Assembly: GCA_043816785.1 (NCBI GenBank)
Contig: JBDRHP010000058.1
Location: 1 to 17,714, forward strand
DNA length: 17,714 bases
Direction: 5' to 3'
Origin: Candidatus Margulisiibacteriota bacterium
GTDB taxonomy: Bacteria; Margulisbacteria; WOR-1; O2-12-FULL-45-9
In this document: positions 1 through 15,009 of the stretch, in pieces
Position numbering within the stretch: the first letter of the stretch is position 1
Layout of the letters: every line of letters begins with the position of its first letter
The notes under the pieces: model-generated
The model's input: only the letters and a program-made list of their open reading frames with translations
What the model was told of the DNA's origin: nothing
Databases searched by the model: none
Made by a program: the position numbers and the translations under genes

Positions 1-215
1 CTCTGATAGCCCTTTTTTTGATAACGTTTAGAATATGCTTCTGCGATAAGGCGAGGAACAGCTTTTGCTGAGCGACGGAGTTGACTATTTAAATCAAATC
101 TTTCTTCTTTTGGTAACTTAGGTAGAATTTTTTTTATTACAATTAAAGCTGCCTGATATGTATTGCGATAAACTTCCAAATCATAAAAACTACTGCTCGA
201 TCTATCATTTTTCAT
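1..215 (-). CDS. Four-helix-bundle protein (TIGR02436 / 23S rRNA IVP-like), 5' part; runs off the window edge
   Basis: Not in the ORF track. Manual translation from ATG at 215 gives MKNDRSSSFYDLEVYRNTYQAALIVIKKILPKLPKEERFDLNSQLRRSAKAVPRLIAEAYSKRYQKKGYQ..., with family motifs F.DLEVY, LPKEE.F.L.SQLRRS and IAE. SD GGAGG at 224-228. Confidence 0.9.
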   Translation of the reverse strand, partial: MKNDRSSSSFYDLEVYRNTYQAALIVIKKILPKLPKEERFDLNSQLRRSAKAVPRLIAEAYSKRYQKKGYQ

Positions 216-237
216 ATTATATGCCTCCCATAACTAC

Positions 238-290
238 ACCCAAACCCAAACCGGGACTTTACCCATACCAATACCTAAACCAACACCCAG
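238..290. repeat. Degenerate hexamer tandem tract (ACCnAn, about 9 units) in the leader of the four-helix-bundle gene
   Basis: ACCCAA ACCCAA ACCGGG ACTTT ACCCAT ACCAAT ACCTAA ACCAAC ACCCAG. Confidence 0.8.
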
Positions 291-300
291 ATGACCAAGC

Positions 301-317
301 AGCAACTTTATTGCCAG
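301..317 (-). promoter_or_regulatory. Sigma54-type -24/-12 promoter of four-helix-bundle gene 1
   Basis: - strand CTGGCAATAAAGTTGCT (GG-N10-GC); 15/17 identical to the element at 7451-7467. Confidence 0.7.
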
Positions 318-356
318 CTGAAAAGGAGTGAATTTGCGAATGAAAGTGGTTCCAGG

Positions 357-373
357 GTGTCGAAATTCCGATA
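357..373. promoter_or_regulatory. Palindromic enhancer-like site (TGT-N10-ACA type)
   Basis: GTGTCGAAATTCCGATA; 15/17 identical to 7507-7523 and at the same 56-nt offset from the sigma54 motif. Confidence 0.65.
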
Positions 374-387
374 GGCAGCCTACACTA

Positions 388-396
388 TGATATAAT
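388..396 (+). promoter_or_regulatory. Extended -10 sigma70 promoter for the macrodomain gene
   Basis: TGATATAAT, 8 nt before ATG 405, no SD. Confidence 0.55.
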
Positions 397-404
397 TAAA
401 TTCT

Positions 405-980
405 ATGAATGAGGTTGAAATCGGACAGTCGAAGATTGTTTTTCTAAAGGGAGACATCACCAAACAGCAGGTTGACTCTATTGTCAACGCGGCTAATTCC
501 TCATTAATGGGCGGGGGCGGGGTTGACGGCGCGATCCATCGGGCTGGCGGGCCGGCAATTCTGGAAGAATGCAAAAAGATCGTGGCTAAACAAGGTCGGT
601 TGCCCACTGGCCAAGCGGTTATTACTACTGGAGGAAAGCTTCTGGCGAAATATGTGATTCATACGGTGGGGCCGATTTACAAGAGTATCAGAGAATCAGA
701 TGATCAGAACTGGATGATCAGAGGGTCAGAAAATCAGAGGGAACAGTTACGGAGCTGTTATATTAAATCTCTTGAGCTGGCTGCTGAAAAAGGAGTAAAA
801 TCGATTGCTTTTCCTTCGATCTCAACTGGAGCTTACCGTTATCCGCTGTCTGAAGCCGCGCTGATCGCGGTCCAGGCGGTTAAAGATTTTCTAAAACAGG
901 AAACATCCATCAAGGATGTCTATTTTGTGCTCTTTAATGATGCTGCTTACGAGGCGTATGTAGAAGCCGTCCGCCATTGA
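405..980 (+). CDS. Macrodomain protein (O-acetyl-ADP-ribose deacetylase / ADP-ribosylhydrolase, YmdB-like)
   Basis: GDIT, IVNAAN, GGGGVDGAIH, VIHTVGP, IAFPSISTGAY motifs; contains a repeat-derived insertion at 681-740. Confidence 0.95.
   Translation: MNEVEIGQSKIVFLKGDITKQQVDSIVNAANSSLMGGGGVDGAIHRAGGPAILEECKKIVAKQGRLPTGQAVITTGGKLLAKYVIHTVGPIYKSIRESDDQNWMIRGSENQREQLRSCYIKSLELAAEKGVKSIAFPSISTGAYRYPLSEAALIAVQAVKDFLKQETSIKDVYFVLFNDAAYEAYVEAVRH
681..740 (+). repeat. In-frame octamer (ATCAGAnn) repeat tract inside the macrodomain gene
   Basis: AAGAGT ATCAGAGA ATCAGATG ATCAGAAC TGGATG ATCAGAGG GTCAGAAA ATCAGAGG. Confidence 0.85.
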
Positions 981-1007
981 GTCTACTTTGTGCTGCAGGG
1001 GGGCTCT

Positions 1008-1176
1008 TTTAAGGTGGTTAAGGCCTTTAGGGCTTTTAAGAAAATGAAGGCTTTTATGGGAAAAAGGGCTGTTAGGGAATAAAGGGATAGGGCCAATAAG
1101 CCCTTTGCCTCACCGCCTTACTGCCGTAACCGCCTTCATTCCCTTAAAGGCCATAAAAGCCCTCACACCCCTAAAA
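1008..1176. repeat. Inverted pair of degenerate 9-mer tandem tracts (long imperfect hairpin)
   Basis: Left arm TTTAAGGTG GTTAAGGCC TTTAGGGCT...AGGGC; loop CAATAA; reverse complement of right arm TTTAGGGGT GTGAGGGCT TTTATGGCC TTTAAGGGA ATGAAGGCG... Confidence 0.75.
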
Positions 1177-1227
1177 ATTACAGATCAAGACAAAAAGTAA
1201 AAAGAAGAAAAAAGAGGCGGCAATACA

Positions 1228-1255
1228 GATAGGCATAATATATCTTATGCGAAGC
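1228..1255 (-). other. dif-like Xer recombination site (possibly degenerate)
   Basis: - strand GCTTCGCATAA GATATA TTATGCCTATC: 11-6-11 layout with CATAA/TTATG inner arms; outer half of the XerD-like arm is poor. Confidence 0.45.
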
Positions 1256-1350
1256 AAAGGTTGAATTATGGTATCTGAAAATGATATATTTTATTCATGA
1301 CAGACCTTCAGCATCTTGGCAAGGACCGGCTGGGATTCTTATCGGAATCA

Positions 1351-1450
1351 AATGACTAATTACTAATGACGAATGACTAATGAATGTCATATTATTATAT
1401 AAAAAAGATTTTACAATCATTAGTTATTAAAGAATTAGTCATTAGTCATT
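1351..1450. repeat. Inverted pair of heptamer (AATGACT) tandem tracts directly upstream of the mutM SD
   Basis: AATGACT AATTACT AATGACG AATGACT AATGA, then an AT-rich loop, then TCATT AGTTATT AAAGAATT AGTCATT AGTCATT. Confidence 0.85.
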
Positions 1451-1465
1451 CAACCGGAGGTTGTT

Positions 1466-2332
1466 ATGCCGGAATTACCAGAAGTTGAAACCATTAAACG
1501 TGGGTTGAAGAAAGCGATTGTGGGAAAGAAGATCGCTGACTTTGACAGTGATTGGCATAAGGCGATCAATAAACCTTTGCGCCAGTACCAGCGGATACTT
1601 ATGGGAACCAAGATTTTAAATGTTGACCGCCGTGCCAAGATGCTTGTTCTGACTTTGCTAAATGATTGGCGCATTCTTGTCCACCTAAAAATGACCGGGC
1701 AGTTGGTTTTCCGCGACAAGAAAAAATGCTTAATTGGCGGTCATTCAATCGAGACAAACTGCGAAAATCTGCCGAATAAATTCACTCACGCCATTTTCAC
1801 CTTTGCTGATGACAGCCATCTTTATTTTAATGATGTGCGCAAATTTGGCTGGGTGAGGCTGTATTCAGCAAATGAATTAGCTAAGGTTTTTGAAAAAATG
1901 CAGCTGGGCCCTGAGCCGCTAACCAGCGAGTTTACGTCGGGCTGCCTGACTGAGATCATGAGGCAGCGTCCTAAAGCCAGGGTTAAACAATTTATCATGG
2001 ACCCCAAAAATCTGGTTGGGGTTGGCAATATCTACAGTGATGAGGTTTGCTTCTTTGCCAGGGTCAGGCCGGACCGACGCGTGGGAACTTTAAAGGATAA
2101 GGAAATTAAACTGATCCATAAAGGGATAATCAAAATCTTGAAAGCAGCGATCATGGCGCAAGGCACAACATTTAGCAATTATGTTAATACTGATGGAGAA
2201 GCCGGGGCTTTTACCAAGCAGTTAAAGGTCTATCAGCGCCATGGCAAAAAATGTTATAGTTGTAAGGGTAGGATAATAAAGATGAAGATAGGAGGTCGGA
2301 CTTCTTCGTTTTGTCCGAAGTGCCAGAAATGA
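1466..2332 (+). CDS. mutM: Formamidopyrimidine-DNA glycosylase / AP lyase (Fpg)
   Basis: MPELPEVE N-terminus, HLKMTG, GVGNIYSDE (H2TH), C-terminal CxxC...CxxCQ zinc finger; SD GGAGG at 1456-1460. Confidence 0.97.
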   Translation: MPELPEVETIKRGLKKAIVGKKIADFDSDWHKAINKPLRQYQRILMGTKILNVDRRAKMLVLTLLNDWRILVHLKMTGQLVFRDKKKCLIGGHSIETNCENLPNKFTHAIFTFADDSHLYFNDVRKFGWVRLYSANELAKVFEKMQLGPEPLTSEFTSGCLTEIMRQRPKARVKQFIMDPKNLVGVGNIYSDEVCFFARVRPDRRVGTLKDKEIKLIHKGIIKILKAAIMAQGTTFSNYVNTDGEAGAFTKQLKVYQRHGKKCYSCKGRIIKMKIGGRTSSFCPKCQK

Positions 2333-2943
2333 AGCTTAAGCCATCAAAAATAATCTGTGTTGGGTTGAATTACCGGGATCATGCCAAGGAATTGAATGAG
2401 CCTATTCCTGAAAGCCCAGTACTGTTCATGAAGCCGATCAGCGCGCTTATTTTTAACCATGATCCGATCGTGTATCCGGAACAGACCCAAAATCTTCATT
2501 ACGAGGCTGAATTAGCAATAGTTATTAAAGACAGGATCAAGAATATATCAGAAAAAGATGCGCGAAGTCATATTTTGGGCTTCACCTGTGCCAATGATGT
2601 GACTGCCAGGGATCTGCAGAAAGCAGATGGCCAGTGGACCAGGGCTAAGTCCTTTGATACTTTTTGTCCGCTGGGACCCAAGATTGTTTCAGACATTGAT
2701 CCTGATAATTTGGACATTAAGCTTTACCTGAATGGAGAAGTAAAGCAGTCTTCTAATACGTCAAACATGATCTTTAGGGTTGATTATCTGGTGTCGTTTA
2801 TTTCCCAAGTTATGACTTTAGAGCCTCAGGATGTGATATTGACTGGTACGCCGCCTGGAGTAGGCCCGATGAATGTTGGCGATGTGGTTGAAGTCGAGAT
2901 TAAGGGTATTGGCAAGCTATCGAATAAAGTTCAAGCCAATTAA
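2329..2943 (+). CDS. Fumarylacetoacetate hydrolase (FAH) family protein
   Basis: KIICVGLNYRDH, HYEAELA, NDVTARD, KSFDTFCPLGP, ILTGTP. Start moved to ATG 2329, which gives an ATGA overlap with the mutM stop. Confidence 0.93.
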   Translation: MKLKPSKIICVGLNYRDHAKELNEPIPESPVLFMKPISALIFNHDPIVYPEQTQNLHYEAELAIVIKDRIKNISEKDARSHILGFTCANDVTARDLQKADGQWTRAKSFDTFCPLGPKIVSDIDPDNLDIKLYLNGEVKQSSNTSNMIFRVDYLVSFISQVMTLEPQDVILTGTPPGVGPMNVGDVVEVEIKGIGKLSNKVQAN

Positions 2944-4178
2944 ATAATAAGTTCAGCCCCGGCTTCTTTTTCCGCAATTGCTTCAGCCAAGCCGATTTCA
3001 GCGACTCTTTGCAGATCAACAGAGCGGCCGGTGCGGCGCAGATTAAAAACATTAATGTTGTTGCCGGTTGAATAACTTATATTGCTGAAATCTGTGGGGA
3101 CTCGTATAGTTCTATCTTCTATCTCAAGCGGGTATGTGTCAGATAAAAACCTGACTGTTTTTTGCCCGCCTTCTTCAATGATAATTCCCCAGGTTGTGAG
3201 ATCAAATCTTTCCGGGCTGTTGGAATATGGGGTGCCGACTCCAACCACTTCTCCTGGGTGTAGGTCCTTATGAAAACTTGTCCAGAAAGGAGAGAAGGAC
3301 AACTTCCTTTGTTCAACCTCTTGCAAGGGATATGATTGTAATTCAGCGCGGCCTTCCCTGAGCAGGGTGGGCAGATCGTACTTGAGCTCCGCGCGGTAAA
3401 GCAGCTCAGCCTCAAGAATCGCTTCATAATCGCTGATCACCGGAATGTCCAGGCCAGAGGCGGCTACTTTATCTCTGGCCAGGCCAAGTTCTCCGCCATC
3501 TGTTTCAGAAACAATAACTGCTGTAATCGTGTGCTGAATGCGGGCCCTTCTTACTTCTTCCTGAACTTCGTGCTTGCCTATTTCCATGCTTGCCGACTCA
3601 TGAAAGTGAATAACGCTAAATGGGCTGCCAAAATATCTTTCATCAATATGGAAACCTTTTTTGCCAACATATCCCTCAATATCCCTGGTGAGCGCGACTT
3701 CATAAGCAACGCTTCTCTGAGACGGGAACATTCCCGTAGCAAAGGCTGGGACGGTGCGCATAATTATAAAATTGCCACGCACATCATGCATATCAGATGG
3801 TATGCGCCCCTTAAGGACCTGATCAAGGAACCACCCGGTTACATGACCTTTTGATTTGAAATAATAATGGGGCAGCCGGAGATCACCATCAGCCATAATA
3901 GCTTCCCGATAAGCCTGATATCTTTCCCTAAGACTGGCTTCAAAGCGGGTTTTATTTGGGGACAGCTGGGCGTGAGCATACTCTGCAATTACCTGGGTCT
4001 GCCATTGTTCACCAAGCCAGCTTGATTTTTCTAAAAGGTCCAAGACAGTCCTTACAATTTGTAAATTTCTTCTTAAATAAGCAGGTCGTTGTCCCCTGTT
4101 TCTCGTCGCAGTTCTTAAGGGAACAACATAGCGGGGACCGTTAGGTCCTCCCGGTCCATTTATGCTGCTAGGCGCCAT
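2940..4178 (-). CDS. Hypothetical protein, 412 aa, with G/P/S-rich N-terminus
   Basis: Long ORF; its start overlaps the end of the upstream ORF (4168-4178), suggesting translational coupling; no family recognised. Confidence 0.75.
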   Translation of the reverse strand: MAPSSINGPGGPNGPRYVVPLRTATRNRGQRPAYLRRNLQIVRTVLDLLEKSSWLGEQWQTQVIAEYAHAQLSPNKTRFEASLRERYQAYREAIMADGDLRLPHYYFKSKGHVTGWFLDQVLKGRIPSDMHDVRGNFIIMRTVPAFATGMFPSQRSVAYEVALTRDIEGYVGKKGFHIDERYFGSPFSVIHFHESASMEIGKHEVQEEVRRARIQHTITAVIVSETDGGELGLARDKVAASGLDIPVISDYEAILEAELLYRAELKYDLPTLLREGRAELQSYPLQEVEQRKLSFSPFWTSFHKDLHPGEVVGVGTPYSNSPERFDLTTWGIIIEEGGQKTVRFLSDTYPLEIEDRTIRVPTDFSNISYSTGNNINVFNLRRTGRSVDLQRVAEIGLAEAIAEKEAGAELII

Positions 4179-5601
4179 TTTCTTTTAACCTCTGGACGGT
4201 TTTTGCTAGATTATGTTGACGGTAAAGGGCTGAGGCGGCCACAACCATATTGGCGCCGGCTGAGCGAGCCCCTCCAACAGTCCTGAGGTTTACGCCGCCA
4301 TCGACTTGGAGGCCTAAGCTTAAGTCAGCTTCTTGAGCAAAACCCCTTAAGCCCGAGATCTTTGGCAAAACCTCTGGCATAAATTTTTGGCCTGAAGCGC
4401 CTGGAATAACGGACATTAGGGTAACTACATCGATCAAGCCAAGATAAGGCAGAATTTTGACATAAGGGGTTGCCGGGTTAATAGCTAAGCCAGCGTGGAC
4501 GTCATGTCGGTGTAATGAAGCTACCAGATCAGCCAGGTCCGCGCGGGGACGATCAGCCGAAGCTGTTAGTTCTGACGAGATCGTGATCAAGTCCACGCCG
4601 ATTTTCATGAGCTCAACAATATAGCTGGCAGGATCTTGCACCATCAGGTGAACGTCGATCGGCAAGTGGGTGCGGGGCCTGATATAGCGAATAAAATCAC
4701 CCAATACCATAAAATGTTCATAAGGATCTTTTGTAGAAGTAACAGGCCCAACCAACTGCCGGCCTTGGTTGAATACGCCGTCCATAATATCCAGGTGAAG
4801 CATATCTACACCATGTTTTTGGGCTCTAGCAACCCGCTGGACAATTGGCTTAAGTGAACGAGGGTTGGTGTCTTCGCGAAAAGGCCCAGCTAGTATAGAC
4901 ATGCCAAGAAGGTTAGCGTGGGCAAGTCTGGGTTTATCTATTCTTAGGGCCAAGCTTTCGGTCTGGTGGCCAAAAACACTTTCGATCTGTGCCAGCTGGT
5001 TTGATAGCAGGGAGAATAGCCTTTTTAAATGCGGGAGACTGTCGATGAGATCCTGCCTGGTCGAGGCTTGTTCAAATTTCAATTTAAATACTGCAAAATT
5101 GCCGCGGTCAACCCTGACTGGATAAAGAATAAATGGTTTGCGGTCTTTCAGATGGGCTAGGTTTTCCGGGTGCATAATGATCATTGGCTGCATACTATCG
5201 ATCACTTGATGCATTTCTATGGTTTCGTCAAGCGGGGTTTTTGTGGCGAAAGAAGTAATTTCTTCTGAATTAGGGTCCAGCTCTGCCAGCACTCTTTGTC
5301 CTTTTAAAGTGAGCTCTTTTTTGATAGTGCCTTTTATTTGCAAGCGCTGTTTGGCAGCGGGATCCAACCATTTATATACTTTCAGGGTTTTGATTGAAGT
5401 TAGTTCTGGAGTTTGGCTGACCCAGTACATCTGGGCAGCCCGGGCGCCAAGCCCATGGATTACCCCCAGTTGCAAAGTGATCCTGATCGCGTCGTCCGGC
5501 GATGTTGCCTGGCGGATCCTTTGGGTTACAAAATCAACCCTTTGCGGGAGGGGCATTTTTTGGATCTGCCTGATAATTATCGGAGAAACAGTTATTCCCA
5601 T
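4168..5601 (-). CDS. Fusion protein: unknown ~230-aa N-terminal region plus ribulose-phosphate 3-epimerase-family C-terminal domain
   Basis: C-terminal HLDIMDGVF, DVHLMV, GLAINPATP, MSVIPGASGQKF, LQVDGGVN, AGANMVVAASA; SD TGAGG upstream. Confidence 0.85.
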   Translation of the reverse strand: MGITVSPIIIRQIQKMPLPQRVDFVTQRIRQATSPDDAIRITLQLGVIHGLGARAAQMYWVSQTPELTSIKTLKVYKWLDPAAKQRLQIKGTIKKELTLKGQRVLAELDPNSEEITSFATKTPLDETIEMHQVIDSMQPMIIMHPENLAHLKDRKPFILYPVRVDRGNFAVFKLKFEQASTRQDLIDSLPHLKRLFSLLSNQLAQIESVFGHQTESLALRIDKPRLAHANLLGMSILAGPFREDTNPRSLKPIVQRVARAQKHGVDMLHLDIMDGVFNQGRQLVGPVTSTKDPYEHFMVLGDFIRYIRPRTHLPIDVHLMVQDPASYIVELMKIGVDLITISSELTASADRPRADLADLVASLHRHDVHAGLAINPATPYVKILPYLGLIDVVTLMSVIPGASGQKFMPEVLPKISGLRGFAQEADLSLGLQVDGGVNLRTVGGARSAGANMVVAASALYRQHNLAKTVQRLKENGA

Positions 5602-5619
5602 AGTATTTGCCTCAATTTA

Positions 5620-5646
5620 TTATCGGCTGCTGGCTATGGGAATTTC
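5620..5646 (-). promoter_or_regulatory. Sigma28 (FliA/WhiG)-like promoter
   Basis: GAAATTCC-N11-GCCGATAA (perfect sigma28 -10 box) just upstream of ATG 5601. Confidence 0.7.
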
Positions 5647-5720
5647 AGATTTTTAGTATAATTTTAATGAATAATAAGTATGATTAAGGGATGAAAGCGG
5701 AGTCGAGGGTGTTGAAGCTT

Positions 5721-5924
5721 TTAGGCACGCAGGGAGGGTTTAAATGGGATCGTAACCAGGTCACCAGGCTGGAATTTGCTTCCCCGATTATCCCTGGCAA
5801 TATCCGCAACACTAGCTTGATGGCCCGAAGCGAGTTCGTCCAAAGTTTCGCCTTCTTGAACAACATGCAGGTGATGGACCTGCGGATTATAACTGGTCGA
5901 TGAACCTACACTGGAAAATGTCAT
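5721..5924 (-). CDS. Small stand-alone LysM-domain protein (67 aa)
   Basis: HVVQEGETLDELA...SVADIARDN...FQPGDLVTIP matches the LysM pattern; SD GGAGG at 5935-5939. Confidence 0.8.
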   Translation of the reverse strand: MTFSSVGSSTSYNPQVHHLHVVQEGETLDELASGHQASVADIARDNRGSKFQPGDLVTIPFKPSLRA

Positions 5925-5946
5925 CTGTTGTGTGCCTCCATATATA

Positions 5947-5973
5947 TAATCGTTCCAACTATGGTAAACCTTG
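5947..5973 (-). promoter_or_regulatory. Sigma28-like promoter
   Basis: CAAGGTTT-N11-AACGATTA upstream of the LysM gene SD. Confidence 0.55.
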
Positions 5974-6027
5974 CATTTAAAATGGTAAAATTTAATCTTA
6001 AAGAGGTTGCTTTTCGTTTTTTAAGTG

Positions 6028-6141
6028 TAAGATTATCAGAGCATTAGAAGGCCAGAACTGGAAGATCAGAATATCAGATTTTTCTGATTCTCTGTTTATC
6101 TGATGCTCCAGTTCTGATACTCTGGTAATCTGATATTCTTA
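6028..6141. repeat. Inverted pair of octamer (ATCAGAnn) tandem tracts upstream of the C39-like gene
   Basis: Left TAAGATT ATCAGAGC ATTAGAAG GCCAGAAC TGGAAG ATCAGAAT ATCAGA; reverse complement of right arm TAAGAAT ATCAGATT ACCAGAGT ATCAGAAC TGGAGC ATCAGATA AACAGAGA ATCAGA. Confidence 0.85.
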
Positions 6142-6145
6142 AACT

Positions 6146-6787
6146 ATGAAAAGAATTACCATCGTTATAATATTAATTTACTTATCGGGTTTAAGTAACG
6201 CTCTTCCTCAGAAAAGCTACATCCCCATCCCCTTCCTCTGCCAGGCTCCTTTTGCAAACTGGAGCCAGCCCTGGCAGGATGCGTGTGAAGAAGCTGCAAT
6301 TATCATGGCTATTCATTATGTAAAAGGTGATCCGGTTACCCGGGTATCAGGGAATCAGGAAATTTTAGGTCTGGTAGATTTTCAGGTTGAAAAATATGGC
6401 GGGCATTACGATCTTACTGCAGAGCAGACAGCAAAGCTGATAAGAGATTATTATAAGTTTGAGAATGTTGAGGTTCGCTATGATATTACGATCCAGGATA
6501 TCAAGGATGAGCTTGCCAAGGGGAATCCTGTTATTACGCCAATGGCTGGCTGGCTGCTAGGCAATCCTTATTACACGCCACCTGGACCGGTTTATCATTA
6601 TATGGTGTTTAAAGGTTATGATGATCGAACCGGGGAATTCATTACTAATGATATGGGGACCAAGCGCGGCAGGAACTATCGCTATAAATATCAAACTGCT
6701 TATAATGCTATCCACGACTGGACCGGCAGTAAAGCAACTATCACCTCAGGCAGAAAAGCCATGGTTGTGGTAAAATTAGATAACTAA
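6146..6787 (+). CDS. Secreted peptidase C39-like family protein
   Basis: Signal-peptide-like MKRITIVIILIYLSGLSNA; QAPF..W...QDACEEA (catalytic Cys), YHYMVFKGYD (His), FITND (Asp). Confidence 0.85.
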   Translation: MKRITIVIILIYLSGLSNALPQKSYIPIPFLCQAPFANWSQPWQDACEEAAIIMAIHYVKGDPVTRVSGNQEILGLVDFQVEKYGGHYDLTAEQTAKLIRDYYKFENVEVRYDITIQDIKDELAKGNPVITPMAGWLLGNPYYTPPGPVYHYMVFKGYDDRTGEFITNDMGTKRGRNYRYKYQTAYNAIHDWTGSKATITSGRKAMVVVKLDN

Positions 6788-6905
6788 CAACACGCTCGCT
6801 ACGCGAGCTACAACTTACAACTAACAACCGGATGTATTATTATTATGAATTCAAATAGTTGTAAGTTGTTAGTTGTAGGGCCCGAAGGGCCCGTGTTGTA
6901 AGTTA
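6781..6905. repeat. Inverted heptamer (TACAACT/AACAACT) hairpin with two symmetric GC-rich side hairpins (four-way junction)
   Basis: 6781-6793 pairs with 6893-6905 (12/13); 6809-6828 pairs with 6858-6877 (18/20); side stems GCTCGC-TAC-GCGAGC and GGGCCC-GAA-GGGCCC. Confidence 0.85.
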
Positions 6906-6909
6906 GTAT

Positions 6910-6983
6910 GGGCCTGTGGCGCAACTGGATAGCGTATCAGCCTCCGAAGCTGAGGGTTGTGGGTTCGAATCCCGCCAGGCCCA
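6910..6983 (+). tRNA. tRNA-Arg(CCG), CCA not encoded
   Basis: Acceptor GGGCCTG/CAGGCCC, D arm GCGC-AACTGGATA-GCGT with A20, anticodon stem TCAGC/GCTGA with CCG at 6944-6946, T arm GTGGG-TTCGAAT-CCCGC. Confidence 0.96.
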
Positions 6984-6986
6984 TTT

Positions 6987-7069
6987 TAGAAAGTAGAACG
7001 TAGAGCGTGGAACGTAGGAGGAACAACTATTCCTACGTTCTATTTTCTGCTCTTTATGCTCTACGTTCT
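6987..7069. repeat. Inverted pair of heptamer (TAGAACG) tracts between the tRNA 3' end and four-helix-bundle gene 2; supplies that gene's stop codon
   Basis: TAGAAAG TAGAACG TAGAGCG TGGAACG TAGGA, loop, TCCTACGTTCTA...TGCTCTACGTTCT; inner 10 bp pair perfectly. Confidence 0.85.
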
Positions 7070-7426
7070 TTTGATCTCACCGGTTTTAACCGACTTAATC
7101 AAACCGCTGGTCATCTTTCCGATTTCATTCGCCAAGTCATACAAATAATTGTACTTTTCGTTAGTTATATAATTCAATTTCCAACATGCCTGGATCAATG
7201 GTACACATTCCAGCAGAGAACCTCTGGCAGTATTATAATACTGTCTCTTTTCTTTCCCATGCATTCGGCCTTGTCCCTCAGCAATATTCAGTGGTATCGA
7301 CATGGCTGCGCGGCGGAGCTGATCCTTGATATTCCTGTCCCTTAATAAACCATTAAGCGCGTAAACTGAAACTAAGAACTGCATGGCTTTCTTATAGACT
7401 TCCAGACCCTCAAACAAAAATGGCAT
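7061..7426 (-). CDS. Four-helix-bundle protein (TIGR02436 / 23S rRNA IVP-like), 121 aa
   Basis: MPFLFEGLEVYKKA...DQLRRAAMSIPLNIAEGQGR...ARGSLLEC...EIGKMTSGLIKS. True start is ATG 7426 after SD GGAGGTGAGG (7430-7439), not 7651. Confidence 0.93.
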   Translation of the reverse strand: MPFLFEGLEVYKKAMQFLVSVYALNGLLRDRNIKDQLRRAAMSIPLNIAEGQGRMHGKEKRQYYNTARGSLLECVPLIQACWKLNYITNEKYNYLYDLANEIGKMTSGLIKSVKTGEIKRT

Positions 7427-7450
7427 TAACCTCACCTCCGGAAAACATGT

Positions 7451-7467
7451 AGCAATCTTATTGCCAG
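7451..7467 (-). promoter_or_regulatory. Sigma54-type -24/-12 promoter of four-helix-bundle gene 2
   Basis: - strand CTGGCAATAAGATTGCT (GG-N10-GC); predicted +1 at about 7440, just before the SD. Confidence 0.7.
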
Positions 7468-7503
7468 GTTGCCGGCAGCTGGAAATAGGCAAGTGGGGAT
7501 GAT

Positions 7504-7527
7504 AAAGTGTCGAAATTACGACACTTT
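7504..7527. promoter_or_regulatory. Palindromic enhancer-like site TGT-N10-ACA
   Basis: AAAGTGTCG-AAATTA-CGACACTTT; core conserved at 357-373. Confidence 0.65.
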
Positions 7528-7538
7528 TTTTGGTACAA

Positions 7539-7587
7539 TAGGGGATAGATAGTAGAACGTAGATCGTAGAACGTAGAGCGTAGGTGC
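7539..7587. repeat. Heptamer (TAGAACG) tandem tract upstream of four-helix-bundle gene 2
   Basis: TAGGGGA TAGATAG TAGAACG TAGATCG TAGAACG TAGAGCG TAGGTGC; 16 bp identical to 6993-7008. Confidence 0.85.
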
Positions 7588-7661
7588 TATATGGAATGCG
7601 ACAAATCAAAAAATTTGAAAGAGTGTAATTGCGCCTTTGGGCTTTGGTCAAACATTGAGAC

Positions 7662-7690
7662 TTGTCTAATCGGCTAAAATTTTATATAAT
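7662..7690 (+). promoter_or_regulatory. Sigma70 promoter for the secD operon
   Basis: TTGTCT-N17-TATAAT, 14 nt before ATG 7705. Confidence 0.6.
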
Positions 7691-7704
7691 TACCCAATCG
7701 TCTG

Positions 7705-9039
7705 ATGAAGAAGAATATTAACCAACTTAGAATACTTATCCTGCTGGCCATCGTGGCCTTTTCCGTTTATGTTATCATGCAGCTGCCGATTACCCTGGGG
7801 CTTGATCTGCAGGGCGGGACCCGCTTAGTATTAGAAGGGCAGCCAACTGACAAGGTGCCTTTGTCTGATGATGCCATGGCTGGCGCAGTCGCGGTTATTC
7901 GCAACCGCATTGACGCATTAGGTGTGTCCGAGCCGATCATCCAGCGTAAGGGTAAAGATCAGATCGTGGTTGAACTGCCCGGGGTAAAGGACCCTGAACG
8001 CGCGATCAAGCTCATTGGTGATACGGCAAATTTAGAATTTGTTGAGGCTGAGTGGGCTCCGGCTGACGAATCAAAATTGACACCGATAAAAGTCAAGGAA
8101 TTCTATGGAGAGGAAGCTTACCTGGATAAGGTAAAACTCTTCAGGAATGGCGAGGTGGTCAGCGAAAAACCGATCATACTAAAGAAGGTTGTTTTAACTG
8201 GCGGGCTCTTGAAGGGGGCTTGGCCAGGAGTAGATGAATTCGGGAATCCGGTAGTTGATATTGAGTTCAATTCCGAAGGCGCCAAGACCTTTGCTGAAGT
8301 GACCGGCCGTGCCGTTGGCAGGCCGATCGCTATTTTGCTGGATAAAAAGATTATTTCTGCCCCAAATGTGCGTGAGCCGATCCCCTCAGGCAAGGCTCAG
8401 ATCTCCGGGGATTTCTCTATTGAGGAGGTTCAGGACTTTGTCATTAAATTAAAGGCAGGCGCGCTGCCGATACCTGTTAAACCCATTGAGACCCGCATTG
8501 TTGGCCCTACCCTGGGAAAAGACTCAATTAATAGGAGTAAGGTCGCGGGGCTGATCGGATTTGCGATCATTGCCGCCTTTATGGTCCTTTATTACCGGCT
8601 GCCGGGCTTTTTGGCCGATATCGCGCTGGGGATATACATTGTTGTCCTGCTCGCTGCTCTTTCGCTGCTCCATGCGACTCTGACCCTGCCTGGCATTGCC
8701 GGTATGCTGCTGTCGATCGGCATGGCTGTAGACGCTAATATCATTATCTTTGAGCGGTTAAAGGAAGAGCTGCGCCTGAAGAAAACTATCAGGCTGGCAA
8801 TTGATACCAGTTTTAAACGGGCCTTTTCCGCGATCGTTGACTCAAACGTTACCACGATTATTGCCGCGGCAACCCTTTTCTTTGTGGGGACCGGGACAAT
8901 CAAGGGATTTGCGGTGGTCCTGACCGTAGGTATCGCGGCTTCAATGTTTACCGCGATCGTGATCACCAGGATGTTAATGAGTATAATGGTCGACAGCAAG
9001 ATACTCTCAAGTTCAGAAACGAAAATGGTGTATAAATAA
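7705..9039 (+). CDS. secD: Protein translocase subunit SecD
   Basis: LGLDLQGG, RIDALGVSEP, VELPG, GALP, VGPTLG, LTLPGIAG, GMAVDANIIIFER, DSNVTT. Confidence 0.97.
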   Translation: MKKNINQLRILILLAIVAFSVYVIMQLPITLGLDLQGGTRLVLEGQPTDKVPLSDDAMAGAVAVIRNRIDALGVSEPIIQRKGKDQIVVELPGVKDPERAIKLIGDTANLEFVEAEWAPADESKLTPIKVKEFYGEEAYLDKVKLFRNGEVVSEKPIILKKVVLTGGLLKGAWPGVDEFGNPVVDIEFNSEGAKTFAEVTGRAVGRPIAILLDKKIISAPNVREPIPSGKAQISGDFSIEEVQDFVIKLKAGALPIPVKPIETRIVGPTLGKDSINRSKVAGLIGFAIIAAFMVLYYRLPGFLADIALGIYIVVLLAALSLLHATLTLPGIAGMLLSIGMAVDANIIIFERLKEELRLKKTIRLAIDTSFKRAFSAIVDSNVTTIIAAATLFFVGTGTIKGFAVVLTVGIAASMFTAIVITRMLMSIMVDSKILSSSETKMVYK

Positions 9040-14241: not shown

Positions 14242-15009
14242 ATGATTCTGGCTATTGATCTGGGGAACACCAATATTGTTATAGGCCTGTTTTCCAACAA
14301 GAAATTGCTGTGTCAGTGGCGTTGGCCAACTAGTAAGCTCAAGCTGCCGAAAATAAAGGCAAAACTGGAGAAAGTTATTGTGGCCAGTGTTGTGCCGGCG
14401 ATGAATGGGAAGCTGAAAAAAGCGATCAAAAAACAGTATAATTGTAATGCTTTTTTCGTAACCGCTCAGAATATTCCGGGATTAAAGGTTAAATTGAAAA
14501 ATAAGCAAGAGATTGGCGCGGATCGGGTGGTTGATGCTTTGGCTGCCTATACATTATATAAAGGGCCCTTGGTGATCGTTGACTTTGGCACAGCAACCAC
14601 CTTTGATGCTATCTCAGCTAAAGGGGAATATCTTGGTGGCGCAATTGCTCCGGGGGTTATTTTAGCCAGGGATGCGCTTTATGAACAGGCTGCGAAGCTG
14701 CCCAAGATAGAGATCAAACCGCCAAAGAATATTATTGGCAAGAATACTGTTGCTGCTATGCGGAGCGGTTTGGTTTATGGATATGTGGCGATGGTCGAAG
14801 GCATGATCAAAAGACTAAAATCCGAAATCCTAAATCCTAAATACGAAACAAAATCAAAATCCAAAAATCGAAATCTTAAAGTTGTTGCGACCGGTGGCCT
14901 GGCTCCGCTTATTTGCAAATATACCAAGGTTGTTGATAGAATAGATAACAACTTAACGCTTAAAGGATTAAGGATTATAGCTGAGAAATTGATTGGAACC
15001 TGCGACTGA
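14242..15009 (+). CDS. coaX: Type III pantothenate kinase
   Basis: IDLGNTN, ASVVP, GADR, VDFGTATTFD, GGAIAPG, ATGG, LTLKGL. Confidence 0.96.
   Translation: MILAIDLGNTNIVIGLFSNKKLLCQWRWPTSKLKLPKIKAKLEKVIVASVVPAMNGKLKKAIKKQYNCNAFFVTAQNIPGLKVKLKNKQEIGADRVVDALAAYTLYKGPLVIVDFGTATTFDAISAKGEYLGGAIAPGVILARDALYEQAAKLPKIEIKPPKNIIGKNTVAAMRSGLVYGYVAMVEGMIKRLKSEILNPKYETKSKSKNRNLKVVATGGLAPLICKYTKVVDRIDNNLTLKGLRIIAEKLIGTCD
14815..14880 (+). repeat. In-frame heptamer-like (CCTAAAT/CCGAAAT) tract inside coaX
   Basis: CTAAAAT CCGAAAT CCTAAAT CCTAAAT ACGAAAC AAAAT CAAAAT CCAAAAAT CGAAAT CTTAAA. Confidence 0.8.

Follow-up and report, generated by a model that had tools for sequence, protein, structure and literature searches.

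The PilS-PilR systems of Pseudomonas, Myxococcus and Geobacter combine a membrane kinase with an NtrC-family regulator, TGTC-containing sites and sigma-54-dependent pilin promoters. Competence genes are organized into regulons around Sxy and CRP-S sites in Haemophilus and Vibrio, and around ComK or ComX in Firmicutes. NifA acts through an upstream activating sequence (UAS) of the form TGT-N10-ACA at sigma-54 nif promoters. Here we describe a module that consists of a sigma-54-type -24/-12 promoter and an upstream 16-bp dyad, and that stands in front of two IVP genes (four-helix-bundle family PF05635/TIGR02436) on contig JBDRHP010000058.1 of a Candidatus Margulisiibacteriota bacterium. We refer to this contig, analyzed over its whole length of 17,714 nt, as the window. 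Copies of the module elsewhere in the genome suggest that it probably marks a sigma-54 regulon for natural competence and type IV pili, in which a response-regulator-type bacterial enhancer-binding protein (bEBP) of the NtrC family would act at the dyad, and in which the IVP genes would be accessory members.

Such a regulon would resemble PilS-PilR in its membrane kinase, its regulator with REC, AAA+ and HTH domains and its use of sigma-54, and also in the placement of pilC-pilin, an assembly ATPase gene and a secretin gene behind the module. Unlike PilS-PilR, it adds comEA-comEC, comM, ssb, topA and four families of small genes, and it relies on a single 16-bp dyad about 70 nt upstream of the predicted transcription start, on a sensor kinase with seven transmembrane segments (7TM) and on a regulator without an NCBIfam equivalog. 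As in the known competence regulons, one upstream motif is common to comEA-comEC, the secretin, pilus (pilC-pilin) and ATPase genes, comM and ssb. The difference lies in sigma-54 and a bEBP taking the place of CRP-Sxy or of an alternative sigma-70-family factor, and in dprA, which is outside the set.

To our knowledge, the PF05635/TIGR02436, ORF6N and GxxExxY proteins are widespread and have no known function. In the literature that we searched, with little coverage of older subscription work, no connection of sigma-54 with IVP genes or with a competence regulon came to light, in Margulisbacteria or elsewhere.

The promoter-dyad module and the genes behind it

The source genome (G000) is a 1.53-Mb assembly in 106 contigs (C1 to C106, with the window as C58) that is 86.75% complete and has a GC content of 46.9%. 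Its relatives are labelled G001-G016. Upstream of IVP genes 1 and 2, the + strand of the window carries the promoter motifs AGCAACTTTATTGCCAG (301-317) and AGCAATCTTATTGCCAG (7451-7467), and the dyad motifs GTGTCGAAATTCCGATA (357-373) and GTGTCGAAATTACGACA (7507-7523). The start-to-start distance from promoter motif to dyad motif is exactly 56 nt at both loci. The pattern AGCAANNTTATTGCCAG, with at most one mismatch, matches the window twice (0.01 matches expected), and TGTCGNNNNNNCGAYA has three strand-matches at two sites (0.03 expected); none of 200 shuffles reached two or three matches, respectively. A pairwise alignment of the two upstream regions retains only these two blocks, the DNA between them having diverged, and the two proteins are only 32% identical across 59 aligned residues. 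In - strand orientation, the promoter motif reads CTGGCAATAA(AG/GA)TTGCT, with GG and GC 10 nt apart in a TGGCA-N6-TTGCW element that is directed into each IVP gene. The initial annotation of the window, which had described two diverged genes sharing a sigma-54 promoter and an upstream dyad at identical spacing, is borne out in all of these points.

For a census of the genome, we defined the module as a promoter that departs from TGGCAATAANNTTGCT at no more than one position, with a dyad 30-220 nt upstream that has at most two mismatches to TGTCG-N6-CGACA. Among the 144 promoter-like words examined, 18 form modules by this definition, including the two in the window, and every one of the 18 is directed into an open reading frame (ORF), with a Shine-Dalgarno (SD) sequence, where found, 10-29 nt past the promoter. 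The genome has 13 exact or near-exact dyad sites, 11 of them with such a promoter downstream, and three strong promoters (C24:3708, C57:5811 and C57:7497) have no dyad. Measured from the TGG, the start of the dyad is 55-57 nt upstream at 13 sites, 45-46 nt at two sites, 137 nt at one and 160 nt at two. The differences of about 10 and about 104 nt between the main spacing classes, equivalent to about one and about ten helical turns, keep the dyad on one face of the helix. Its stem is fixed in sequence and its loop is variable, within a longer conserved unit (G)TGTCG-N6-CGACA(C). The 18 sites therefore show what is typical of a UAS, a repeated dyad upstream of a promoter with the helical phase kept.

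The genes behind the modules were named by their Pfam and NCBIfam matches. Modules precede comEA-comEC, a lipoprotein gene followed by a secretin gene, ssb, topA, a YhcG nuclease gene and a bEBP gene on contig C4. Others precede ORF6N-T2SSF(pilC)-pilin-SBP, PDDEXK_3(GxxExxY)-T2SSE (encoding a GspE/PilB/ComGA-like ATPase), yraN-comM(YifB)-DUF3276-ORF6N, an ORF6N gene with an IF-2B-family gene, and ORF6N-IVP, while the remaining ones stand before seven stand-alone IVP genes. In all, 10 of the 18 modules precede genes other than IVP, and the conserved core consists of genes for DNA uptake, type IV pili and the handling of single-stranded DNA, together with the regulator. There is no nif gene behind any module. 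The small-gene families are strongly represented: all four ORF6N genes and the only PDDEXK_3 gene are behind modules, as are 8 of the 10 PF05635 genes, seven of them as the first gene. Two of these eight modules are degenerate (C4:37533, with TGGTAAT; C11:18570, with CGGCAAT and half a dyad). Finding seven of 10 IVP genes first behind one of 18 modules has a rough hypergeometric probability of about 1e-12 if some 1530 genes are assumed. The IVP genes without a module are C20:68282, which has a GNAT gene and metH as its neighbors, and C30:3322, a truncated copy.

Some modules have additional features. The long-spacing sites C2:9506, C11:70704 and C104:2755 (loci L033, L019 and L026) have a common repeat-rich insert between dyad and promoter, and it is this insert that displaces the dyad to -137 or -160. 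At C11:70704 and C104:2755 its length is about 105 nt. It contains TATTATTATAAT-like runs and heptamers of the TTGTTAG/TTGTAAG kind, and a hairpin CGGCCCTTCGGGCC also lies within both 160-nt sites. Short hairpins GGTNNCAAATTTGNNACC, for example GGTCGCAATTTGCGACC, occur in the predicted leaders of C4:22737, C69:20660 and C104:2755, and in that of topA in the relative G013 (L134). In many modules of G000, G008, G014 and G013, a semi-conserved third box (TTCGTAAAA / ACGCTTAAATA) precedes the TGG by about 20-30 nt; it does not resemble the IHF consensus. In the window, dyad 1 abuts an extended -10 box, TGATATAAT (386-405), just before the ATG of a macro-domain gene at 405, and dyad 2 overlaps a sigma-70-like match on the + strand, TCGAAA-18-TACAAT (7510-7539). 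Since the dyads touch divergent promoter elements, binding of a regulator could also affect divergent transcription.

Conservation in relatives

We compared the promoter word across the same family and its sister family, with 15 genomes from each. With at most one mismatch, it occurs 7-25 times per genome in all 15 genomes of either family (0-3 times for a reversed-pattern control), and other families of the class have it less often. In its strict form, the G000 module is too narrow a pattern for relatives and matches 3 of 40. We looked at two relatives gene by gene, namely G013, which belongs to another genus of the same family and is 97% complete, and G016, a member of the sister family assembled as one complete contig. 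For G013, 19 stretches cover 20 of the 22 listed promoter matches, two having been dropped for a broken GG or GC; for G016, 18 of 19 promoter matches were taken.

G013 has the same architecture with a different dyad, TGACCA-N4-TGGTCA, and a conserved middle box, ACGCTTAAATA, between dyad and promoter. Its promoters precede ssb, yraN-comM, topA, PDDEXK_3-T2SSE-PDDEXK_3, IVP-T2SSF-IVP-pilin, ORF6N-x-secretin and comEA-comEC, as well as six ORF6N and four IVP genes; those of amt-glnB and glnA have no dyad. A GACC-N6-GGTC module has nine strict matches, all in G013, among the 41 genomes searched. The dyad is TGTCG-N6-CGACA in G000 and six other genera and TGACCA-N4-TGGTCA in G013 only (L126-L144), with position, promoter and targets unchanged. 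The similarity of the HTH regions had led us to predict that the sister family would have the GACC dyad as well, a prediction that failed.

In G016, promoters precede comEA-comEC, yraN-comM, topA, T2SSE, T2SSF-pilin, x-secretin, two ORF6N genes, two of the three IVP genes and, twice, amt-glnB. The site that corresponds to that of ssb precedes ORFs without a Pfam match, which are followed by a nitroreductase gene. Small genes change their slot between genomes, as illustrated by the leader gene of pilC, which is absent in G016, an ORF6N gene in G000 and an IVP gene in G013. To judge from these comparisons, the DNA-uptake core is stable, and it is the enhancer sequence that turns over between genera. 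The IVP subfamilies predate the genera; IVP proteins from C59 of G000, L128 of G013 and L155 of G016, for instance, are 43-55% identical, and all three genes are behind a promoter.

Sigma-54 machinery and candidate activators

The initial annotation had made its proposal dependent on sigma-54 and bEBPs being encoded in the genome, and both are. The rpoN gene (C24:910-2253) encodes a protein with Sigma54_AID, Sigma54_CBD and Sigma54_DBD domains, and there are three full bEBPs, none with an equivalog-level name in NCBIfam. The first, with GAF, AAA and HTH domains, precedes amt-glnB-glnA, where the sigma-54 promoters have no dyad. As these dyad-less promoters adjoin the gene for a GAF-type bEBP, they point to a separate nitrogen regulon. 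The second, a REC-AAA-HTH protein, is encoded next to rpoN. On C24:1-8000 (L021), rpoN and this gene are part of an operon-like row that continues with a dyad-less sigma-54 promoter, a 114-aa ORF and a gene for a receiver protein, the latter with a degenerate AAA+ domain that lacks Walker A, GAFTGA and HTH; in G013, the same pair of a 113-aa ORF and a receiver gene is also behind a promoter. The third bEBP (C4:9022-10383) is again of REC-AAA-HTH type, and its gene is behind a perfect module.

We prefer this C4 protein as the activator. Its gene is divergent from one for a HisKA_7TM/HisKA/HATPase_c kinase (C4 about 7190-8829, - strand), and the relative G002 has the same divergent pair, with a module that contains a variant dyad, TGTCAATATTTTGACA. 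A full module in the intergenic region of a divergent kinase/regulator pair, both in G000 and at the G002 orthologue, is a classic sign of autoregulation, and it is for this reason that the C4 protein is favored. The closest orthologues of the regulator, at 58-63% identity, are from Candidatus Margulisiibacteriota; among NCBIfam models, its best matches are AtoC and NtrC, both below threshold. An Rfam search of the region upstream of the C4 bEBP gene found no family. The recognition helix of C4-type HTH domains reads RTTLVTK, RTTLLSK and RTSLIT in three genomes with TGTCG dyads and RTSLNNR in G013, a change that fits co-evolution with the dyad.

Together, our data suggest a model in which the 7TM histidine kinase senses a signal and would phosphorylate the divergently encoded REC-AAA+-HTH regulator. 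The regulator would then bind the 16-bp dyads, located about 56 nt upstream of the promoter, as enhancers, and would activate the sigma-54 holoenzyme at short range from a fixed face of the helix. This would switch on a core of comEA-comEC, the secretin, pilC and pilin, the PilB/GspE-type ATPase, yraN-comM, ssb, topA and the regulator gene itself. Most IVP genes, all ORF6N genes, the single GxxExxY/PDDEXK_3 gene and the YhcG nuclease gene would be co-activated with DNA uptake as accessory genes.

Several observations weigh against this model. The gene dprA has no module, so that the set is not a complete competence regulon. A widened module with TGTC-N8-GACA is found in 7 of the 15 family genomes and in none of the 15 from the sister family, and an enumeration of dyads in 18 upstream regions of G016 revealed no shared dyad or palindrome within 200 nt of the promoters. 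Association of IVP genes with the promoter is uneven among relatives. When we counted the IVP matches that have a same-strand promoter (at most one mismatch) no more than about 250 nt upstream, leaving out G003, G005, G012 and G015, we found 3/9 in G013, 1/5 in G010, 0/1 in G004, 0/5 in G009, 1/3 in G011, 3/3 in G008, 0/11 in G001, 2/7 in G007, 0/7 in G006, 3/6 in G002, 1/4 in G014 and 2/3 in G016. The pooled 16/64 is far above the 1-2% or so expected for a random gene, yet far from universal. Dyad 2, with the T run next to it, scores as terminator-like on the + strand. The C4 bEBP has GAFTNA in its sigma-54-interaction loop instead of the GAFTGA of the GAF-type bEBP, and an upstream module and an adjacent kinase gene are both missing from its orthologues in G013, G014 and G016. 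Finally, the covariation of helix and dyad discriminates poorly, since the HTH of the rpoN-adjacent bEBP varies between genera, too.

The last three points bear on the choice of activator. The same regulon could be driven by the bEBP encoded next to rpoN on C24, an assignment that we consider the less likely one, though worth serious attention. Besides its vicinity to rpoN, this protein has an intact loop (GSFTGA), its HTH also differs between G000 and G013, and it would accommodate the C4 orthologues that lack a module. However, the promoter just downstream of its own gene has no dyad (the best match has four mismatches), whereas the C4 gene and its G002 orthologue have the full module expected of an autoregulated activator.

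The terminator-like score of dyad 2 raises a different question, namely whether the palindrome is an enhancer at all. It might be the hairpin of an intrinsic terminator or insulator on a mobile promoter cassette and owe its conservation to copying or gene conversion. Most modules of G013, and several of G008, G012, G006 and G014, indeed have a T run after the palindrome, and the gene 2 unit behaves like an inserted cassette (see below). Yet a T run after the dyad is missing from most sites in G000, and several modules lie between divergent genes, where there is nothing to stop (kinase and regulator, gene 1 and the macro-domain gene, gene 2 and secD). The fixed stem with its variable loop, the conserved helical phase relative to the promoter, and the genus-specific dyads in front of orthologous core genes argue against this explanation as well, making it very unlikely.

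The initial annotation had interpreted the dyad as a NifA-type enhancer and the IVP genes as one co-induced sigma-54/bEBP regulon that is a candidate for an undescribed RNA-binding or repeat-associated system. A shared module was indeed found at other IVP paralogues (the 8 of 10 mentioned above), and that part of the proposal stands. Specificity for IVP genes does not, as more than half of the modules precede other genes, with DNA uptake as the core. The dyad formally fits TGT-N10-ACA and is upstream of a -24/-12 promoter, as a NifA UAS would be, but the conserved unit is longer, nif genes are missing from its targets, the GAF-type bEBP is associated with the dyad-less amt-glnB-glnA promoters, and the autoregulated candidate is a REC-AAA-HTH protein. 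The case for RNA binding comes from the relationship of PF05635 to Avd, the accessory protein of diversity-generating retroelements (DGRs), which is described in PMC10053308, and from one weak bAvd match of an IVP paralogue (E 8.6e-4, below the cut-off). Set against this, tRNA is the sole family that Rfam finds in the window, and the sole RVT_1 match in the assembly (C20:66321-67676; L189:2822-4177) is a GIIM-bearing group II intron-type maturase. The assembly therefore contains no DGR, although one could be missing at 86.75% completeness, and we found nothing that points to RNA binding. A dedicated IVP regulon of this kind is accordingly improbable, and the sigma-54 regulon for competence and type IV pili remains the better account of the module.

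IVP genes and the gene 2 cassette

The IVP family is referred to as functionally uncharacterized in PMC11270868. Both window genes pass the PF05635 cut-off (33.8 bits), and gene 2 also passes that of TIGR02436 (94.8 bits, cut-off 24). The sole match of gene 2 in the PDB, and its nearest structure, is 2gsc_A (E 3.1e-9), the entry that represents PF05635 in a comparison with Avd in PMC10053308.

In these respects, the window genes are like Avd and like the ORFs of ribosomal RNA (rRNA) intervening sequences. Their location is unlike that of either. An origin as ORFs of 23S rRNA intervening sequences was rejected, gene 1 being next to the macro-domain gene and gene 2 between tRNA-Arg and secD, and so was the role of Avd, as there is no DGR reverse transcriptase alongside. 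We likewise rejected a DGR link for the module-less IVP gene on C20; the reverse transcriptase nearby is the group II intron maturase. The features of the two window loci are listed in Table 1.

Table 1. Positions of features at the two IVP loci of the window
Feature	Position	Strand	Details
IVP gene 1, 5' part only (runs off contig end)	3..215	-	PF05635 46.8 bits, E 3.9e-12, profile positions 2-57 of 106
Hexamer repeat (ACCCAA)n	238..252		Period 6, 2.5 copies; within predicted 85-nt gene 1 leader
Sigma-54-type -24/-12 promoter TGGCAATAAAGTTGCT	301..316	-	Predicted start near 290
Possible middle box TTCATTCGCAAATTC	330..344	-	Weak match to TTCGTAAAA / ACGCTTAAA
Dyad 1 TGTCGAAATTCCGATA	358..373		Differs from TGTCG-N6-CGACA at 1 position; start 57 nt upstream of TGG (- strand)
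tRNA-Arg(CCG)	6909..6984	+	Left boundary of putative cassette
(TAGAACG)n hairpin, terminator-like	6987..7069		Just past gene 2 stop; left flanking repeat
IVP gene 2, 121 aa, PF05635 / TIGR02436 four helix bundle protein	7061..7426	-	PF05635 101 bits, E 5.4e-29
Gene 2 SD GGAGG	about 7439-7430		ATG at 7426
Sigma-54-type -24/-12 promoter TGGCAATAAGATTGCT	7451..7466	-	Predicted start near 7440
Dyad 2 TGTCGAAATTACGACA	7508..7523		Perfect palindrome; starts 57 nt upstream of TGG (- strand)
(TAGAACG/TAGATCG)n array	7546..7583		Right flanking repeat
28-codon remnant of small Cys-rich ORF	7585..7671	+	Intact, with 62 codons, at the same site in G004
secD	7705..9039	+	Right boundary gene; own sigma-70-like promoter 7662-7690

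Gene 2 appears to be an inserted cassette of about 600 nt. The distance between tRNA-Arg(CCG) and secD is 65-75 nt in six relatives, compared with about 600 nt in G000, and the remnant of the Cys-rich ORF marks the ancestral arrangement of tRNA-Arg, small ORF and secD. The sequences that bound the cassette (6987-7017 and 7546-7576) are 90% identical, and the left hairpin folds with -30.8 kcal/mol (z -5.85), with none of 200 shuffles as stable. Homologues of gene 2 on three metagenome contigs are 79, 77 and 66% identical to it and have different neighbors, namely a PPDK_N-domain gene and metH, a Sua5/YrdC gene and metH, and a Cache-sensor gene and tmRNA. All of them have TGGCA-N6-TTGC at 24-33 nt upstream of the ATG. 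Two of the three are flanked on either side by direct copies of a hairpin element of 40-94 nt, at spacings of 612-620 and 572 nt and with 83-87% identity, so that the gene 2 cassette and two of its homologues are flanked by copies of one hairpin-forming heptamer element. In the Logan collection, a 1559-nt contig from a DNA run that may be the source sample is identical to 6974-8532 of the window. Comparison of 1-9000 with four DNA runs otherwise yielded fragments, and the one Logan contig that joins position 324 to 7504 is a further copy of the module, from a related organism. The sequence of 1-9000 was found in no RNA run.

According to the initial annotation, each IVP gene is tied to its own short-repeat family. 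This is only partly the case. Flanking repeats were sought at six other IVP loci of G000; at C59 and C104 they are 445-465 nt apart around the IVP core, and at C49, C4, C11 and C30 there are none. Moreover, period 7 is the commonest tandem-repeat period genome-wide, with 145 arrays of many different units. An array of this period lies within 700 nt of 10 of 20 module or IVP sites, compared with 11% of random positions. The window has additional heptamer arrays at 1351-1383, 1434-1450, 6809-6877 and 14818-14848, and we take the heptamer repeats of this genome to resemble the short tandemly repeated repetitive (STRR) sequences of cyanobacteria. On C59, a 27-nt direct repeat (L029:1873-1899 and 2666-2692; 89% identical, 793 nt apart) flanks a unit of dyad, promoter and IVP gene. 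Its second copy is inside the 3' end of a phosphoribosyltransferase gene and therefore looks like a duplicated target.

Within a competence regulon, we would guess that the IVP proteins either bind or process incoming DNA, or represent cargo of small cassettes that exploit the promoter. In its fuller form, the second idea would make IVP, ORF6N and GxxExxY genes the cargo of mobile cassettes of about 450-620 nt, bounded by direct hairpin repeats, that carry a sigma-54 competence promoter or land behind one, and that are perhaps spread by transformation and recombination. Such cassettes would be expressed exactly during DNA import. We regard this as a tentative possibility, with the odds rather against it. 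The question is kept open by the empty tRNA-Arg/secD site in six relatives, by the homologues (66-79% identity) in three contexts, each with a promoter, and by the slot shifts in the pilus operons of G000, G013 and G016.

The regulon may be of interest beyond this genome. With most IVP paralogues of one genome in a conserved sigma-54 DNA-uptake regulon, the family would obtain its first concrete context, expression together with the import of foreign DNA. A competence-type regulon would be under the control of sigma-54 and a two-component bEBP, and this in an uncultured phylum. The enhancer changes between genera while promoter and targets stay constant, which would make the system a compact natural case of co-evolution between a regulator and its site. 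If the small genes do prove to be the cargo of mobile cassettes, there would also be a first context for the “rRNA intervening-sequence” families, as competence-linked cassettes that are either selfish or involved in DNA handling.

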